Positions 10,243 through 22,541 of a stretch of DNA of 64,000 bases are shown here, piece after piece. The notes below the pieces were generated by a model that did no database searches, was not told where the DNA came from, and worked only from the letters and a program-made list of their open reading frames with translations. The DNA is from a virus, in IMG/VR virus record IMGVR_UViG_3300042731_008053, one strand, 5' to 3'. Made by a program: the position numbers and the translations under genes. The stretch's first letter is position 1. The number at the start of each line of letters is the position of its first letter.

Positions 10243-10743
10243 GTGATCGTTAGTGTCACAGGTCACCGGCCTCCCAAGGTCGGCGGTTACGGGAACAACT
10301 CCTTGCGTTCCTGCATTACTGATAACCTCAAGGACGCTCTCGTTGAGGCGAACGCGACGTTGGGGATCTCAGGCATGGCCATTGGCGTCGATCAGTGGTT
10401 CGCGCAAGCATGTTTGGATCTGTCAATCCCGTTTCTCGCTGCCGTTCCGTTTGTCGGTCAGGAGTCGCGGTGGCCCACGCCAGCTCAAATACGGTATCGA
10501 CAACTCCTCGCGAAAGCGGCGGAAATCGTACATGTTTGCGATCCAGGCTACGCTCGGTGGAAAATGCAGGCGCGGAACGAGTGGATGGTGGATCGTTGTG
10601 ATCGATTGATCGCAGTGTGGGACGGTAGTGCGGGTGGGACCGCTAACACAGTCCTGTACGCCAACAAGGTTCAACGCACTGTCCACTTGATCAACCCTCG
10701 TGAATTGGAAAGCGAATGCCAAACAGCAGTGAAGAACCAGTAA
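10243..10743 (+). CDS. SLOG / DUF1273 (YoqJ-like) family protein
   Basis: VSVTGHRPPKVGGY...ISGMAIGVDQWFAQAC...IPFLAAVPF...LIAVWDGSAGGTANTV pattern of DUF1273; GTG start. Confidence 0.6.
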   Translation: MIVSVTGHRPPKVGGYGNNSLRSCITDNLKDALVEANATLGISGMAIGVDQWFAQACLDLSIPFLAAVPFVGQESRWPTPAQIRYRQLLAKAAEIVHVCDPGYARWKMQARNEWMVDRCDRLIAVWDGSAGGTANTVLYANKVQRTVHLINPRELESECQTAVKNQ

Positions 10744-11261
10744 GCTTCTGGCAACAAGAGCGCCCCTGGTGGCACACCGAGCACGTGTACCAGGTGCGCA
10801 ACCGCGTTGTCGGGCTGCCGGTTCCAGAGCTGCGTGGGTTGGCCGAGGAAATGAAGGGCGCGATAGCGACCCTGCAACAGCAAATGGAGACGGCTGGGCC
10901 CGAGATCGCACCGGTGCGTGAGCTGTCGCGCCAGCTTGGACCCGTCAAACCCGACGTTCTCGCTGCCGCGCTTGGCAAAAAGTACGACATCAGCGTCGAG
11001 GAGGGGCGCGAGTTGGTGGACGCCTTCGACTGGTGGAAGAGTGTACGCGGGGCGCTGGGCTTCATTCGGCAAAAGCACTCACTCGTCGTTGCCGAGATCA
11101 CCCGTCGCCGTTCCGAAGATGCCGAACAAGCCGTGTTCGACATCAAAGGCAAAATCGAAAAAGCGTGCATGTTGATGGATCGCGATGAGGGCGACGACAT
11201 CGAGGACGCGTACAAATTGTTGCTGCAGATTCGGGAGCGCCTTTCCGCCGTAGGTCCTTAG
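10716..11261 (+). CDS. hypothetical protein
   Basis: ORF track; overlaps the upstream gene by 28 nt. Confidence 0.5.
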   Translation: MPNSSEEPVSFWQQERPWWHTEHVYQVRNRVVGLPVPELRGLAEEMKGAIATLQQQMETAGPEIAPVRELSRQLGPVKPDVLAAALGKKYDISVEEGRELVDAFDWWKSVRGALGFIRQKHSLVVAEITRRRSEDAEQAVFDIKGKIEKACMLMDRDEGDDIEDAYKLLLQIRERLSAVGP

Positions 11262-11374
11262 ATGTTGGAGCAGGTGCCGTCCTCGACATTTGAAGTAGCA
11301 ACCAGCGTCACGTTTGTGCTACTCGTTTGCGTCGCCGTTTTGCACCCCGTTTATCGTCGTTGCCAGTAGGCGTT

Positions 11375-11403
11375 GCATCTAGATGAATGCTGTTGGAAGA
11401 AGG
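11375..11403 (+). promoter_or_regulatory. Conserved motif copy 3: GCATCTAGATGAATGCTGTTGGAAGAAGG
   Basis: Same ATGAATGCTGTTGGAAGA core as copies 1 and 2. The internal ATG is the ORF-track start of the next gene. Confidence 0.5.
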
Positions 11404-11925
11404 AAGGAATTGAAGATGACGCCCCTACAAACCTGCGAAGCTGCCATCGACGCTTGTAACGATCGGACAGATGCATCGATCAACACGTGTCTCGACATTT
11501 TGCGTCCGATCTTGACGCCCTACTTTGAACAAGACGGTTTCGAGAAACGTTTCGAGCGCGTCTTCCGATCGATGATGCGCATTCCCATCAGTTCGCTCGA
11601 CAACGTCAAGGATCGAATCAAGGCGGAGGTCGCCGAAACACTCAGCGGTCCAACCTACGCTGAAGCAGTCGCCAAACAGCGCGCCGATCGTGAAGCAGAG
11701 AAACAGGCGCTACTCGATCAAATGGTGGCGCACGAGAAACAATTTGTCTCGACCCTGTTGACGAAGCTCGGTCTGCGCAAAGGCGATCATCTGATGGTTA
11801 TCGGCGAAAACAGTTTTACGCCGACGCACATCTCCTTGGAGCAATGGGATCTCCCTGATGAGAGGACGCTGCCGCGCTACGCCCAACCCAGCAAGGACTC
11901 TGACGGTGAATCGTCCGACGGCTAA
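11383..11925 (+). CDS. hypothetical protein (alternative start 11416 behind SD AAGGAAGG)
   Basis: ORF track; N-terminus MNAVGRRKELKMTPLQ... Confidence 0.5.
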   Translation: MNAVGRRKELKMTPLQTCEAAIDACNDRTDASINTCLDILRPILTPYFEQDGFEKRFERVFRSMMRIPISSLDNVKDRIKAEVAETLSGPTYAEAVAKQRADREAEKQALLDQMVAHEKQFVSTLLTKLGLRKGDHLMVIGENSFTPTHISLEQWDLPDERTLPRYAQPSKDSDGESSDG

Positions 11926-12413
11926 TGCCTCTTACACCCCAGATAGCCGTCGAGTTCGTCGCGGCGATCCGCGAACAAATGTCGCGCTGTCCGGGCTGTC
12001 ACGGTATCGGTCAAACACGTCCCACGGGTGCACTGCTGAGCATGTTCTGCCTGGTGTGCGAAGAGGTTGCCAGGGCCATGTATCCCATCGATCGTGGGTG
12101 GCTTCCCGGGCATGTTCCGCGTCTCGATCCCGTCAACGACGTCAAGGCTTACGCCGAGTTCGTCAAGGAGTGCAATCGTGCCCTGTACGAGGCACGCGAA
12201 TTCGCGAAACGGTGTCCCGGGTGTTTCGGTGTACGCCGAGTGTGGGGTGCTGAGAAAATCCGTGGTTGTCTTGTTTGTCAGCGACTTCACGCAGCGTTGG
12301 ATGCCTATGAAATGGCTGTCAATCCCGCTGACCCTTCGCCCATGTTCGTTGCCGACGACAGTTCTCCCCGTCTGTTCGGAGGGCGTCAAAATCACGACGA
12401 TGGTGACCCATAG
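11925..12413 (+). CDS. hypothetical protein with two CPGC..C..C zinc-ribbon-like clusters
   Basis: ORF track; CPGCHG..CLVC and CPGCFG..CLVC. Confidence 0.5.
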   Translation: MPLTPQIAVEFVAAIREQMSRCPGCHGIGQTRPTGALLSMFCLVCEEVARAMYPIDRGWLPGHVPRLDPVNDVKAYAEFVKECNRALYEAREFAKRCPGCFGVRRVWGAEKIRGCLVCQRLHAALDAYEMAVNPADPSPMFVADDSSPRLFGGRQNHDDGDP

Positions 12414-21109: not shown

Positions 21110-21111
21110 GC

Positions 21112-21519
21112 ATGCCAGACACCGAAACCCCAACCAAGATCAAAACGACTGCCAGACAAAAAGCCCAAACGACAGCGCCGTGGGTTGCGCTTGCTGCAGC
21201 CATCGCGGTTCCCTTCTTTTCATATTTGGAGGCACGTGACACGGCGCGTGCAGCGCGAGACAAGGTCAACAACGTCCAACAGAGCGCGACCAAGATCGAC
21301 AAGCAGACTGACACGACCTTCAAGCTCGTGATGTTCGAGTTGCGGCGTCTGGGTAAGGACGTTGAGGCCTGTCACGCCAAGTACGCCGATCTACAGAAAA
21401 ACATTGACGAGCGTCGAGCCAGTCACCTACGTCGAATCAAGCGACCTCCGCCTCAGAAAGCGTTGCCAAAAAGCTACCACGATGTAAAATCGCCACCTGA
21501 TGGGGGCCAAAAACCTTGA
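21112..21519 (+). CDS. hypothetical protein with N-terminal TM segment
   Basis: GGAGG 6 nt upstream of ATG; WVALAAAIAVPFFSYL TM segment. Confidence 0.5.
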   Translation: MPDTETPTKIKTTARQKAQTTAPWVALAAAIAVPFFSYLEARDTARAARDKVNNVQQSATKIDKQTDTTFKLVMFELRRLGKDVEACHAKYADLQKNIDERRASHLRRIKRPPPQKALPKSYHDVKSPPDGGQKP

Positions 21520-21997
21520 GCAGTTTGTCTGCTATCTCGCTGAGTGTGGCATCGACGACAACTGCGACGACCTGAAAAAACTTGTTGAAGAAGGCCGCGC
21601 CGATGACATCAAGGCGCATTTGTCGAGTTGGGTACGCGAGAAGGCGCGTAACGCGCTTGCCGACAACCCGCGTGAGTCACGCAGCGATCTGAACATCGAC
21701 GAGTTGACGCATCAAGTGTCCAATGACGTTGCGGAACTCAGGATCGCGTTTGAAGACGGTGTAGACGCTATTCTTGAGCCGTTCGACGAAGCCACCCTTC
21801 ATGCGTTTATTGAACATTTTGGTGACCGTACACGCGTTCGTCGCAACGGTCCGGTTGCTGTTGACATCTGTTACCGGGCACAAGTTATGGCTAGTCGGCG
21901 CCGCCGTCTACGTGAAGCACAACGGCAACGGCTGAAAGCTGAAGACTACTGCGAACGACACGAATGCGTGGTCAAAGACTGCGCCGACAAGCATTAG
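21500..21997 (+). CDS. hypothetical protein
   Basis: ORF track. Confidence 0.45.
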   Translation: MGAKNLEQFVCYLAECGIDDNCDDLKKLVEEGRADDIKAHLSSWVREKARNALADNPRESRSDLNIDELTHQVSNDVAELRIAFEDGVDAILEPFDEATLHAFIEHFGDRTRVRRNGPVAVDICYRAQVMASRRRRLREAQRQRLKAEDYCERHECVVKDCADKH

Positions 21998-21998
21998 C

Positions 21999-22541
21999 AT
22001 GCCTGACAGCGGCGACTTTTCTATCGGCTCCAACCGTTGGCCTGGGATCAGTAAACTCATTGAGGAGTGCAATGAGGTGGGACAGGTCTGCGGCAAGCTC
22101 ATTGGTAGCAGCGGCGAAATCATGCACTGGGACGGTACAAACCTGAAAGACCGTCTCGAAGGCGAGTTGGGAGATGTCCTGGCAGCCATCGACTTCGTCT
22201 CGCAGTACTGTGGGCTGAACAAAGTACGCATCGCTGATCGGCGGGCATTCAAATTTGCGCGATTTCGTCGTTGGCAAAAGAATCCAATCCCTGTGCCCAA
22301 AATGCCGACAGCTGCCAAGGCGGTGCCGCCTCCTGGTACACCAGATGGTAACGATGGTGCTGTTTGGGGCGAAGACGGCATCTGGAGCAAAGACGGCAAG
22401 ACCTATTTGTCATGCGGCTTTGCTATGGTGGGTCCTGAGTGTAAATGCAACGGGTGCAAGTGGGAACGTGACGAGCTACCGCAATACAGCAGTCTCGATG
22501 AAGCCATGAAGGATCGTTCGGAGGAACGACAAAACAAATGA
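21999..22541 (+). CDS. MazG-like nucleotide pyrophosphohydrolase domain protein (tentative)
   Basis: LIEECNEVGQ...LEGELGDVLAAIDFVSQY resembles the E-E-x-x-E ... E-x-x-D metal-binding helices of MazG-type NTP pyrophosphatases. Confidence 0.5.
   Translation: MPDSGDFSIGSNRWPGISKLIEECNEVGQVCGKLIGSSGEIMHWDGTNLKDRLEGELGDVLAAIDFVSQYCGLNKVRIADRRAFKFARFRRWQKNPIPVPKMPTAAKAVPPPGTPDGNDGAVWGEDGIWSKDGKTYLSCGFAMVGPECKCNGCKWERDELPQYSSLDEAMKDRSEERQNK

Follow-up and report, generated by a model that had tools for sequence, protein, structure and literature searches.

Genes in and around the interval

The window analysed here is a stretch of 64,000 nt from the IMG/VR virus record IMGVR_UViG_3300042731_008053, within which we examined the interval 10243-22541. 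All five ORFs that the original prediction had assigned to nucleotide-modifying enzymes were confirmed at their positions, each on the plus strand. Profile annotation with Pfam and PHROG upheld the SLOG and NUDIX assignments, replaced DUF4406 by its sister family DUF7768, and left DUF1653 marginal and the MazG-like protein below the Pfam cut-off. Matches of a neighbouring MVP-like gene are restricted to uncultured phages of 462-735 kb, which supports the view that the element is a huge phage.

The first gene (10243-10743, plus strand) encodes a 166-aa YpsA-clade SLOG protein (formerly DUF1273), the type that had been proposed, with a match to PF06908 above the cut-off (E = 1.5e-13; 51.5 bits versus 27.7). 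It also passes the cut-off of the DprA family PF02481 (2e-8; 34.1 bits versus 29.6). Its best PDB sequence match is B. subtilis YpsA (2NX2, 2.8e-8), but it also matches DprA and ShosA structures and, weakly, ShosA antitoxin models (2.9e-7). YpsA and phage DUF1273 proteins are its closest known counterparts. The match to YpsA covers nearly the full length, with the GxGxD/E motif in common; however, YpsA belongs to Gram-positive cells, in which it inhibits cell division, whereas the window protein is phage-encoded and ~25% identical at best. The motifs TGHRP, GMAxGxD, QxRN and GGT are invariant across seven homologues. SLOG homologues were found in 303 phage records, and those of small phages lie under or adjoin primase/helicase and SSB annotations. 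Three orphan ORFs of 181, 180 and 162 aa follow (10716-12413, plus strand), none with a Pfam or PHROG match and the third being Cys-rich with a CxxCxGxG motif. They overlap or follow each other closely, the one exception being 121 nt (11262-11382) left free 5' of the second ORF, and their order is kept in contigs L006 and L007/L008.

The gene at 12423-13127 (plus strand), for which a DUF4406/2-deoxyribosyltransferase fold had been suggested, belongs to DUF7768 (PF24963, E = 5.6e-13, Pfam match confined to aa 18-117). The suggestion nevertheless survives in part: DUF7768 is a sister family of DUF4406, the corresponding domain of a relative matches DUF4406 weakly (3.4e-3), and the window protein matches PHROG 355 'nucleoside 2-deoxyribosyltransferase' (1.2e-4). 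These weak cross-matches and the conserved S-x-G-M-x-x-E motif liken its NDT/DUF4406-like domain (aa ~16-125) to the nucleoside 2-deoxyribosyltransferase/DNPH1 (Rcl)/DUF4406 superfamily; the motif may correspond to S-x-G-x-x-x-E, the nucleophile motif of NDT, DNPH1 and DUF4406 proteins. Unlike that superfamily, the window protein, whose fold is putative, carries an extra fused C-terminal segment of ~80 aa. In a relative this segment forms an ORF of its own; L006 and L007 have homologues of 143 aa, and the C-terminal part aligns to the next ORF of L006 in another frame. Across 904 family representatives, G93 and G99 are invariant and H21, N34, W41, W57, R72, G75, D87, S97, M100 and E103 occur in at least 90%; the GGxxSxGMxxE motif is intact. 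No solved structure was detected by a 64-sequence family profile, and AlphaFold yielded a poor model (pLDDT 42). In Firmicutes phages, DUF7768 is located between the DNA polymerase and the helicase.

The NUDIX assignment was correct in calling the protein canonical. This minimal hydrolase of 126 aa (15259-15639, plus strand) matches PF00293 (E = 8.9e-19) and has an intact Nudix box (G-x5-E-x7-REFREEAG). Its nearest solved relatives are MutT-like 3R03, Bdellovibrio RppH (3EES), MutT (1MUT from E. coli) and Ap4A hydrolases; the best sequence matches, of the MutT/RppH type, score 1.7e-8 to 1e-6, and the protein equals that type in size. Among NCBIfam models, RppH and MutT match best, with ADP-ribose/NAD families 4-8 orders of magnitude behind; the protein differs, however, in falling below every equivalog cut-off, and its substrate is therefore not assignable. 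The 141-aa DUF1653 protein (16785-17210, plus strand) passes the Pfam cut-off marginally (PF07866, E = 5.6e-6; 27.1 bits versus 23.5). It had no matches in the phage database or the PDB, and its AlphaFold model is unreliable (pLDDT 46). The nucleotide-binding folds originally attributed to the unassigned families are plausible for SLOG and DUF7768, as Rossmann-like nucleotide-processing proteins, whereas nothing indicates such a fold or a nucleotide enzyme for DUF1653.

The last gene (21999-22541, plus strand) encodes an all-alpha, MazG-like NTP pyrophosphatase domain (aa 1-~98, 21999-22292). The MazG-like label is backed by PHROG matches (PHROG 25433 at 3.3e-19; PHROG 4856 'NTP pyrophosphohydrolase' at 1.3e-9) and by the catalytic motif, but the Pfam MazG score is below the cut-off (16.8 versus 22 bits). 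The metal-binding EExxE...ExxD motif (E22, E23, E26, E56, D59) is invariant in 28 homologues, which are mostly standalone proteins of ~100 aa, and conservation is limited to the first ~100 aa. The single domain and this motif are shared with Atd1 of Pectobacterium phage PcCB7V and with the T4-like NTP pyrophosphohydrolase. Distant relatives in T4-like phages lie between primase gp61 and dCTPase gp56, the ORF adjoining the primase showing 39-46% identity over ~55-60 aa by tblastn. Unlike Atd1 and the T4-like protein, the window protein belongs to a tight family of its own with additional invariant residues (W14, K19, Q29, K33, H43, W44) and has a Cys-rich, non-conserved tail; similarity to the Atd1 phage was undetected by tblastn. 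The phages with homologues also include NP1-like Queuovirinae, whose genomes have genes for deazaguanine synthesis.

These five genes do not form the module that had been considered plausible, and as a cluster they are weaker than proposed: they are five of ~24 in the interval and are interleaved with ~19 others, including an RlpA-like ORF, a membrane-anchored SGNH/GDSL hydrolase, small membrane proteins, and orphans that match neither Pfam nor PHROG. One of the interleaved ORFs (18541-18960) is on the minus strand. If gene positions are taken as uniform over the 64 kb, a span of ≤12.3 kb for five genes has P = 0.006, or P = 0.024 without DUF1653, values that apply to a gene set picked post hoc and to phage genomes, in which modularity is general.

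The DUF4326-SLOG-DUF7768 linkage and the variable slots

Upstream of the interval lie a 542-aa P-loop NTPase (2507-4135, plus strand), with weak Pfam matches to ORC-CDC6-like, nSTAND and AAA families, and a 93-aa DUF4326 protein (4403-4684, plus strand; PF14216, E = 1.9e-24, 86.6 bits), which an HMM built from locus homologues matches at 2.6e-35. DUF4326 is a sixth relevant gene, outside 10243-22541, that the original prediction had missed. The NTPase is a conserved backbone gene directly 5' of DUF4326, and its homologues in that position are 39-42% identical in L020, L033, L097-L099 and L105 and 69% identical in L007. DUF4326 homologues in turn lie 5' of SLOG and DUF7768 in L007, L020, L033, L097, L098, L099 and L105.

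DUF4326-SLOG-DUF7768 is the only conserved linkage, and it is kept despite a change in gene order. All seven contigs of the clade with sufficient flanking sequence (the window, L007, L033, L097 and three of the L020/L105 type) carry the trio on a single strand, spanning 5.8-8.7 kb, although these loci all derive from one clade and are phylogenetically non-independent. In the window clade the genes run DUF4326>SLOG>DUF7768. The sister clade has DUF4326>DUF7768>SLOG, with a ThyX-like and a Prim-Pol gene interspersed, downstream of the same P-loop NTPase; neither of these two genes was found in this segment of the window clade. The trio is kept over deep divergence (DUF7768 identity 31-39%). Shared ancestry of a collinear backbone, with no functional coupling, could also account for the conservation of the trio.

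In L007, a diverged relative, SLOG, DUF7768 and DUF1653 are kept in order. This contig covers the full backbone from the NTPase to IF3, yet it lacks the NUDIX, MazG-like, MVP and GDSL genes. The slots filled by NUDIX and MazG-like are variable: a relative instead has a DNA methyltransferase-Macro fusion, a GNAT and a HATPase there. DUF1653 is kept in the same backbone position in both L006 and L007, whereas NUDIX is present in L006 but absent from L007. The closest full-length homologue of the MazG-like protein (P0007) lies in an unrelated neighbourhood. NUDIX and MazG-like are thus lineage-specific accessory genes.

We also searched the neighbours (E≤1e-5) of 80 SLOG-anchored IMG/VR viral loci (1.42 Mb). 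DUF4326 was nearby in 21 of them and DUF7768 in five, whereas NUDIX (by its box), MazG-like and DUF1653 were found in none, nor was any NUDIX within 10 kb of SLOG. Together with the absence of NUDIX and MazG-like from L007, this leaves joint action of all five genes unsupported. The stretch encodes five or six small enzymes that probably cut nucleotides; however, only three of the genes travel together in related phages, which indicates a loose, ordinary grouping rather than one machine.

Possible roles of the trio and its neighbours

The best explanation of the locus as a whole, which we hold tentatively and with slightly less than even confidence, is that the interval combines a conserved backbone piece of a very-large-phage clade with inserted lineage-specific cargo genes instead of being one functional module, and that the backbone trio conditions the nucleotide pool in series. 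By family precedent, the trio proteins would be small enzymes or binders of nucleotide-derived molecules. Both SLOG and the NDT-like DUF7768 would fall into Rossmann-like families whose members cut or exchange the N-glycosidic bond between base and sugar, and DUF4326 is predicted to be a phosphatase for phosphates linked to ribose. They would most likely act serially on one nucleotide or ADP-ribose-like substrate class, early in infection or during replication, stripping phosphate and base off unwanted nucleotides and thereby conditioning the pool of precursors from which phage DNA is made. The MutT/RppH-like NUDIX and the MazG-like protein would be independent accessory pyrophosphohydrolases that produce monophosphates from (d)NTPs or similar compounds with a diphosphate link; they could supply the pathway of the trio, from which they are genetically uncoupled. 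DUF1653 is a backbone gene for which nothing indicates a link to nucleotides. This reading draws support from the replication genes found near the trio in the sister clade, near DUF7768 in Firmicutes phages, near SLOG in small phages and near distant MazG-like relatives, and from the intact catalytic motifs of the NUDIX, MazG-like, DUF7768 and SLOG proteins. Published predictions run counter to this reading in placing viral YpsA-SLOG and DUF4326 in ADP-ribose signal degradation.

Those predictions concern viral YpsA-clade SLOG, DUF4326, Macro, NADAR and Nudix proteins as degraders of ADP-ribose-derived immune signals (Iyer et al. 2022, PMC9503650), so that an anti-defence role of SLOG, DUF4326 and Nudix is already in print, and by analogy such a reading of the window genes is plausible. 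The set would then counter NAD+/ADP-ribose- or other nucleotide-based immunity (Thoeris, TIR systems, AVAST III, or stringent-response-dependent abortive infection): SLOG would bind or cleave cyclic ADP-ribose-type signals, DUF4326 would remove ribose-linked phosphates, DUF7768 would cut the N-glycosidic bond, NUDIX would split the diphosphate of ADP-ribose or NAD, and the MazG-like protein would destroy (p)ppGpp or another alarmone. Iyer et al. predicted exactly such a role for their SLOG, DUF4326, Macro, NADAR and Nudix proteins and reported genome-level co-occurrence, and the frequency of DUF4326 near SLOG, the weak ShosA antitoxin match and the position of NUDIX and MazG-like in variable slots, where accessory host-interaction cargo often sits, are in line with it. 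In L007, moreover, the methyltransferase-Macro fusion (Macro 1.3e-25) lies directly 3' of DUF7768, a position suggestive of ADP-ribose handling or of DNA modification. The phage MazG-like protein Atd1 hydrolyses ppGpp, blunts TIR defences and rescues T5 on retron-TIR (bioRxiv 10.1101/2022.06.09.495361), but tblastn did not detect the window protein in the Atd1 source phage. The trio is a conserved backbone over deep divergence, unlike typical fast-turnover anti-defence genes, and is replication-adjacent in the sister clade; Macro and NADAR were not found in the window, no SLOG locus had a nearby NUDIX, and the NUDIX protein is closest to MutT and RppH rather than to ADP-ribose/NAD families, albeit below all cut-offs. 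We consider counter-defence unlikely as the explanation of the set, though a serious competitor. The replication context (ThyX-like, Prim-Pol) favours a nucleotide-pool or DNA-modification role at least as much as an anti-defence one.

DNA modification itself could take the form of a base-replacement pathway yielding non-canonical-base DNA that evades restriction, in which the pyrophosphatases would clear a canonical dNTP, DUF7768 and SLOG would hydrolyse or exchange the base of a dNMP or nucleoside, and DUF4326 would trim phosphate. The sister-clade ThyX-like protein (470 aa, longer than ordinary ThyX), encoded directly 5' of Prim-Pol and DUF7768, would fit, as would the methyltransferase fused to Macro beside DUF7768 in L007 and the MazG-like homologues in Queuovirinae. 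In addition, a review on jumbo phages proposes removal of unmodified NTPs by MazG-like enzymes (PMC7824862), and DUF4326 has been suggested to bridge NAD-utilising systems and DNA modification (Iyer et al. 2021). However, the Pfam scan of the ~120 window ORFs found no base-modifying synthase, glycosyltransferase or Dpd/Que-type gene, and the ThyX-like gene is absent from this segment in the window clade; we consider base replacement quite improbable. Hardly better placed is the view that these are independent small genes packed into a same-strand early region, SLOG being a non-enzymatic, DprA-like ssDNA-binding or recombination mediator. The dilution of the five genes among ~19 unrelated ones, including envelope enzymes and membrane proteins, the disjoint distribution of the five families across phages, the huge phages LR756500/1 that have the MVP-like gene alone in common with the window, and the DprA-family score and DprA and ShosA structure matches of SLOG agree with it; yet the trio linkage survives rearrangement between sub-clades, DUF4326 is enriched near SLOG and fused to it in other viruses, and SLOG scores clearly higher as YpsA than as DprA.

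Compared with the viral network of NAD+/ADP-ribose-processing domains in the work of Iyer, Burroughs, Anantharaman and Aravind (Viruses 2022, PMC9503650), the large phage of the window likewise has standalone YpsA-clade SLOG, DUF4326 and Nudix genes, the SLOG-DUF4326 proximity recurs, and the relative adds Macro in the same region. The window nevertheless differs in lacking domain fusions as well as Macro and NADAR, and in a Nudix of the MutT/RppH type that has no counterpart beside SLOG in other phages. The conserved third partner here is DUF7768 (NDT/'DrHyd'-like), with the sister-clade trio beside replication genes, whereas DrHyd proteins of viruses are listed there only as ADP-ribosyl cyclases. 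Another comparable protein, by motif description only, is the small SLOG/DprA-like (DprA/Smf-like) ORF83 of phage DruSM1, the loss of which reduces plating on AVAST III, which would favour counter-defence, although the drop is modest (bioRxiv 10.1101/2024.04.14.589459, 10.1101/2025.06.06.658234). Its amoeba-virus homologues are fused to DUF4326, and its predicted ligand residues R-N...T agree in type and spacing (22-23 residues) with QxRN and GGT of the window SLOG.

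Inheritance of the five genes

The original prediction regarded five genes between 10243 and 22541 as a possible module, several of whose products may act together: those for a SLOG protein (10243-10743), a 2-deoxyribosyltransferase-like protein (12423-13127), a NUDIX hydrolase (15259-15639), a DUF1653 protein (16785-17210) and a MazG-like protein (21999-22541). All five ORFs are present as described, and no nucleotide-hydrolase-type Pfam match was found in the window beyond them. The interval contains ~24 genes, and the intervening ones encode an RlpA-like protein, an SGNH/GDSL hydrolase and small membrane proteins and include one minus-strand ORF; a dozen orphans in the interval have no Pfam or PHROG match. 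The occurrence of five genes within 12.3 of the 64 kb has a P value of 0.006 under a uniform null (0.024 when DUF1653 is omitted), a figure that reflects post hoc grouping and takes no account of how modular phage genomes usually are. The presence of gaps of 121, 230 and 431 nt between genes argues for several transcription units; a promoter/terminator scan performed no better than with shuffled sequence.

Two relatives of the window, L006 and L007/L008, were reached by a homologue search with the protein encoded at 12423-13127, which belongs to the DUF7768 family. L006 shares 45-75% protein identity with the window and is fully collinear with it, carrying genes for a major-vault-protein (MVP)-like protein, SLOG, three orphans, DUF7768, the RlpA-like protein, GDSL, NUDIX and DUF1653. 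L007/L008 is more diverged and retains the order P-loop NTPase, DUF4326, SLOG, three orphans, DUF7768 and RlpA-like ORF, followed by the 16414 ORF, DUF1653, the 17622 ORF and IF3 (the 16414 and 17622 ORFs being ORFs of the window). L007 lacks the MVP, GDSL and NUDIX genes, the genes at 18971-21997 and the MazG-like gene, and its replacements in those slots encode a GNAT protein, a DNA methyltransferase interrupted by a Macro domain and a HATPase_c_3 protein. These losses and replacements indicate that the backbone is conserved and that the NUDIX and MazG-like genes are cargo in its variable slots. The RlpA-like ORF, which L007 has, belongs to the backbone, and the GDSL gene is variable.

A SLOG-anchored survey covered 80 IMG/VR loci (homologues with 41-56% identity, ±10 kb, 1.42 Mb), in which six-frame ORFs were searched with HMMs built from our alignments and with a Nudix-box pattern (E<=1e-5). 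DUF4326 was found near SLOG at 21 of the 80 loci and DUF7768 at five; a MazG-like gene, a DUF1653 gene or a Nudix box was found at none of the 80. One weak NUDIX-like tblastn match, close to SLOG in LR745208, falls within a 1253-aa ORF and was discarded as spurious. Given the gene content of L007 and of the 80 SLOG loci, the five genes do not behave as one set and are not co-inherited as a unit. What looks to the eye like a cluster arises largely from backbone collinearity and inserted cargo.

Two features of these regions deserve mention in their own right. At 13665-14936 (plus strand), the supposed nucleotide cluster is interrupted midway by cell-envelope enzymes: an RlpA/DPBB-like ORF (TIGR00413, 1e-5) is followed by the SGNH/GDSL hydrolase (Lipase_GDSL_2, 1.6e-14), which has a membrane helix at its C-terminus. 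In L007 (JGI 3300053780 contig Ga0483989_0000993), the gene directly 3' of DUF7768 (10436-12208, plus strand) encodes a 590-aa N6/N4 DNA methyltransferase into which the Macro domain is inserted (N6_N4_Mtase 1.3e-23, Macro 1.3e-25), an unusual fusion that joins DNA methylation with ADP-ribose binding.

The NUDIX, DUF1653 and MazG-like proteins

The protein encoded at 15259-15639 is a canonical NUDIX hydrolase (PF00293, E 8.9e-19, 68.3 bits versus a cut-off of 21.1) with an intact Nudix box, GGIEAGETAFVAAAREFREEAGS, located at 15367-15436 by a regular expression (GX5EX7REUXEEXGU). Its nearest solved proteins are the MutT-like 3R03, Bdellovibrio RppH (3EES), MutT and Ap4A hydrolases. Among NCBIfam models, RppH (1.9e-11) ranks first and MutT (2.2e-9) second, both under cut-off. 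The ADP-ribose/NAD equivalogs NudE (1.4e-3), NAD diphosphatase (NudC; 4.6e-3) and NadM-Nudix (2e-3 to 6e-3) score well behind these two and fall far short of their cut-offs.

The DUF1653 assignment is also correct but marginal (PF07866, 27.1 bits versus a cut-off of 23.5, aa 9-66 of 141). The protein had no match in the PDB or in the phage database, and a word-indexed homologue search returned two relatives only; the AlphaFold model built from 2 sequences (pLDDT 46), with four beta-strands followed by helices, is too poor for a fold search. Nothing links this protein to nucleotides.

The MazG-like call stands in part: the match to Pfam MazG is below cut-off (PF03819, 16.8 bits versus 22, E 0.0086), but the protein matches PHROG 25433 (3.3e-19) and PHROG 4856, 'NTP pyrophosphohydrolase' (1.3e-9), and has the metal motif. 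Residues E22, E23, E26, E56 and D59, which form the EExxE...ExxD motif, are invariant in all 28 aligned homologues. A profile search against the PDB gave no significant match, YpjD (2GTA) alone appearing at E 0.8. The database contains 44 homologues, mostly standalone proteins of ~100 aa, some of which JGI names NTP pyrophosphatase. The sole full-length homologue, P0007, shows 47% identity and lies in an unrelated neighbourhood. More distant relatives are gp61 of an NP1-like Pseudomonas phage and a ~94-aa T4-like ORF between primase gp61 and dCTPase gp56. Identity with the T4 gp56 dCTPase itself was considered and rejected, the matching T4-like ORF being a separate gene two ORFs from gp56. Conservation in the 28-sequence alignment does not extend to the last 80 aa, and the tail of the window protein (22293-22541, plus strand) is Cys-rich, with the pattern C-x9-C-x-C-x2-C. 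In several homologues the tail is of a different Cys-rich or CxxCxGxG type, and in others it is missing altogether; the Cys-rich tails may be variable zinc-binding appendages.

The DUF4326-SLOG-DUF7768 genes

Because DUF4326 was recorded repeatedly in the SLOG survey, the window was re-scanned, revealing a 93-aa DUF4326 gene that had been missing from the predicted set (PF14216; 4403-4684, plus strand; Pfam 86.6 bits versus a cut-off of 25, E 1.9e-24; HMM 2.6e-35). It lies just 3' of a gene for a 542-aa P-loop NTPase (2507-4135). In every contig of this large-phage clade with enough flank (the window, L007, three L020/L105-type contigs, L033 and L097), DUF4326, SLOG and DUF7768 are encoded on a single strand within a span of 5.8-8.7 kb. 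Their order is DUF4326, SLOG, DUF7768 in the sub-clade of the window and DUF4326, DUF7768, SLOG in its sister clade. In the sister clade, the P-loop NTPase gene is followed by DUF4326, then by genes for a ThyX-like protein of 470 aa and Prim-Pol, then by DUF7768 and SLOG, and homologues of the 16414 and 17622 ORFs lie 3' of SLOG. The ThyX-like gene and the Prim-Pol gene that follows it (3.3e-43) occupy 5046-7577 (plus strand) of L033 and have equivalents in L020, L097, L099 and L105. The conserved unit is DUF4326-SLOG-DUF7768, a backbone feature that is adjacent to replication genes in the sister clade. The sister-clade ThyX-like protein is unusually long, its match to Thy1 (2.6e-16) covering the first ~220 aa and leaving an additional C-terminal half.

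The locus scan anchored on DUF7768 used a trimmed 11-sequence alignment, the 64-sequence version being too diverse. Among the 15 loci, SLOG was present in six and DUF4326 in seven; the three loci with DUF4326 and without SLOG end <=1.6 kb downstream of DUF7768. Between SLOG and DUF7768, the window also encodes a 162-aa Cys-rich orphan (11925-12413, plus strand) with a DnaJ-type CxxCxGxG zinc-finger motif (CPGCHGIG; related CPGCFGVRR). This orphan is kept at the same position in L006 and L007/L008, and the overlap or direct contact of its stop with the neighbouring genes suggests co-translation with DUF7768.

The SLOG protein is of the YpsA type, as predicted (PF06908, formerly DUF1273, E 1.5e-13, 51.5 bits versus a cut-off of 27.7). 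It scores lower against DprA (PF02481, 34.1 bits), and in NCBIfam the YpsA-like PRK13660 (6.6e-9) precedes dprA (4.5e-5), both under the equivalog cut-offs. Among solved structures, B. subtilis YpsA is the best match (2.8e-8), followed by DprA and the DprA-like antitoxin ShosA (~5e-3); similarity to ShosA and PDC-S07 in PADLOC is weak. The pocket motifs G44-M-A-I-G48-V-D50 and G131-G132-T133, and in addition TGHRP and QxRN, are invariant in all seven aligned homologues; the first has the form GMAxGxD, and its GVD aligns with GVE of YpsA 2NX2. Homologues occur in 303 phage records. In small phages they coincide with or adjoin primase/helicase and SSB annotations, and in Myxococcus phage Mx1 SLOG is fused to DUF4326.

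For the protein encoded at 12423-13127, the predicted DUF4406/2-deoxyribosyltransferase relationship was close, but the actual family is DUF7768 (PF24963, E 5.6e-13, 49.5 bits versus a cut-off of 26), the match covering only the N-terminal ~100 aa (aa 18-117). An HMM of 64 of the 904 family representatives matches the window protein at 5.4e-47. The match to PHROG 355, 'nucleoside 2-deoxyribosyltransferase', is weak (1.2e-4), and the DUF7768 domain of a homologue in a separate locus, L103, matches DUF4406 at 3.4e-3 (18.2 bits, under the cut-off of 22). In its relatives the DUF7768 protein has 143 aa; the 234-aa window ORF joins to this a segment that in L006 is a separate 80-aa ORF. Two residues, G93 and G99, do not vary across the 64 sequences, and >=90% of these have H21, N34, W41, W57, R72, G75, D87, S97, M100 and E103. 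The GGxxSxGMxxE stretch resembles the nucleophile motif of nucleoside 2-deoxyribosyltransferase (NDT) and DNPH1. This likeness is a lead rather than a test, because the family profile had no significant match in the PDB and the AlphaFold model, based on a 4-sequence alignment, was too poor for a fold search (pLDDT 42). The word-indexed homologue search gave four matches for this protein.

In Firmicutes phages and prophages, more distant DUF7768 genes lie between DNA polymerase and helicase genes, without SLOG or DUF4326, and a bacterial genome scan returned four Clostridia loci only, likewise without either partner. At 9899-11147 (plus strand) of L103 (IMGVR_UViG_3300050514_000135), three genes stand in a row: DUF7768 (7.7e-18), directly followed by an ORF combining a Lar-like zinc ribbon with NUDIX (5.7e-19), and a third ORF with an NDT-like 'GxSxxxxxE' appearance and no Pfam match. 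This is the only case of direct DUF7768-NUDIX adjacency that we saw.

Every family discussed here is known, and the anti-defence hypothesis has already been published as a prediction. Iyer et al. (PMC9503650) present viral NDT-type ('DrHyd') domains only as ADP-ribosyl cyclases, and no mention of DUF7768 was found in the full-text literature searched; on this basis, DUF7768 seems not to have been described before as a partner of SLOG and DUF4326. The observation is comparative and modest, and it concerns a single clade.

Possible functions and other genes of the phage

The three conserved proteins would process one kind of nucleotide-derived small molecule, by phosphate removal and N-glycosidic cleavage, and the NUDIX and MazG-like proteins would work separately, with (d)NTPs or diphosphate-linked compounds as substrates. 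Because the families of the three proteins occur in replication contexts, we tentatively favour a role in replication-linked conditioning of the nucleotide pool, at slightly less than even odds. The main rival, possible although rather less likely, is counter-defence against ADP-ribose/NAD-derived and other nucleotide signals. Iyer et al. (2022; PMC9503650) predicted such a role for viral SLOG, DUF4326, Macro, NADAR and Nudix proteins, and L007 carries a Macro domain. The MazG-like Atd1 provides a precedent (bioRxiv 10.1101/2022.06.09.495361), and deletion of the DprA/SLOG-like ORF83 sensitises phage DruSM1 to AVAST III (bioRxiv 10.1101/2024.04.14.589459, 10.1101/2025.06.06.658234). However, the three genes are deeply conserved, the 80 SLOG loci contain no SLOG-NUDIX neighbourhood, and the NUDIX protein is MutT/RppH-like in character; the MazG-like protein showed no close homology to the phage of Atd1. 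Pure coincidence is improbable, and a DNA-modification pathway scarcely differs from it in that respect. These readings are not mutually exclusive, and the cargo of the variable slots may well consist of host-interaction genes even if the conserved three do not.

A more specific version, which we consider unlikely but worth stating, is a three-enzyme pathway particular to this huge-phage clade. It would take one nucleotide-derived molecule apart in steps, with phosphate removal followed by N-glycosidic cleavage by two enzymes of paralogous fold. The substrate would be either an ADP-ribose-family signal of host immunity or a canonical deoxynucleotide that has to be kept out of phage DNA, and DUF7768 would be an unrecognised partner in the SLOG/DUF4326 network. 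If the three genes do act as a unit, they would provide the first working context for DUF4326, viral YpsA-type SLOG and DUF7768 in phages, and the network predicted for ADP-ribose and nucleotide processing in viruses would gain an NDT-like enzyme. As it stands, the region mainly documents the usual assortment of auxiliary nucleotide hydrolases in a huge environmental phage.

The source of the window is such a phage. The identical sequence recurs in Logan run SRR11696381 and also on a contig of 78 kb (JGI, Logan). None of 50,697 phage records matched the 12.3-kb interval at the nucleotide level, and IMG/VR single-protein scans with the DUF7768 and MVP-like proteins returned no relatives. The window has a GC content of ~57% and densely packed, mostly small genes, nearly all on the plus strand at 2.5-27 kb; no tRNA gene was found in the 64 kb. 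Pfam matches elsewhere include DnaG primase, a HerA-like ATPase, a peptidoglycan-binding/3D-domain lysin, two hexapeptide transferases and an AP2 domain.

Translation-related proteins are also encoded: IF3 (22563-23099, plus strand; both domains at ~1e-29, 69% identity in L007), a class-I release-factor-like protein with GGQHRN (26083-26838, plus strand; Pfam RF-1 7.8e-30, PCRF 6.4e-13) and a peptide deformylase-like protein (54494-55174, minus strand; 8.9e-34), the coordinates of the latter two coming from a motif search rather than from the per-ORF Pfam table.

Directly upstream of SLOG lies the 881-aa MVP-like ORF (7489-10134, plus strand; Pfam MVP_shoulder 5.5e-26, Vault_3 7.6e-11). It shows 73% identity in L006 and is missing from the equivalent backbone position of L007. 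Outside L006, tblastn matched it only in LR756500 (462 kb) and LR756501/3 (735 kb), which are huge phages known from uncultured material (40-44% identity); LR756500 and LR756501 were rejected as synteny references, this being the sole gene that they have in common with the window. A homologue of the vault shell is unusual in phages.
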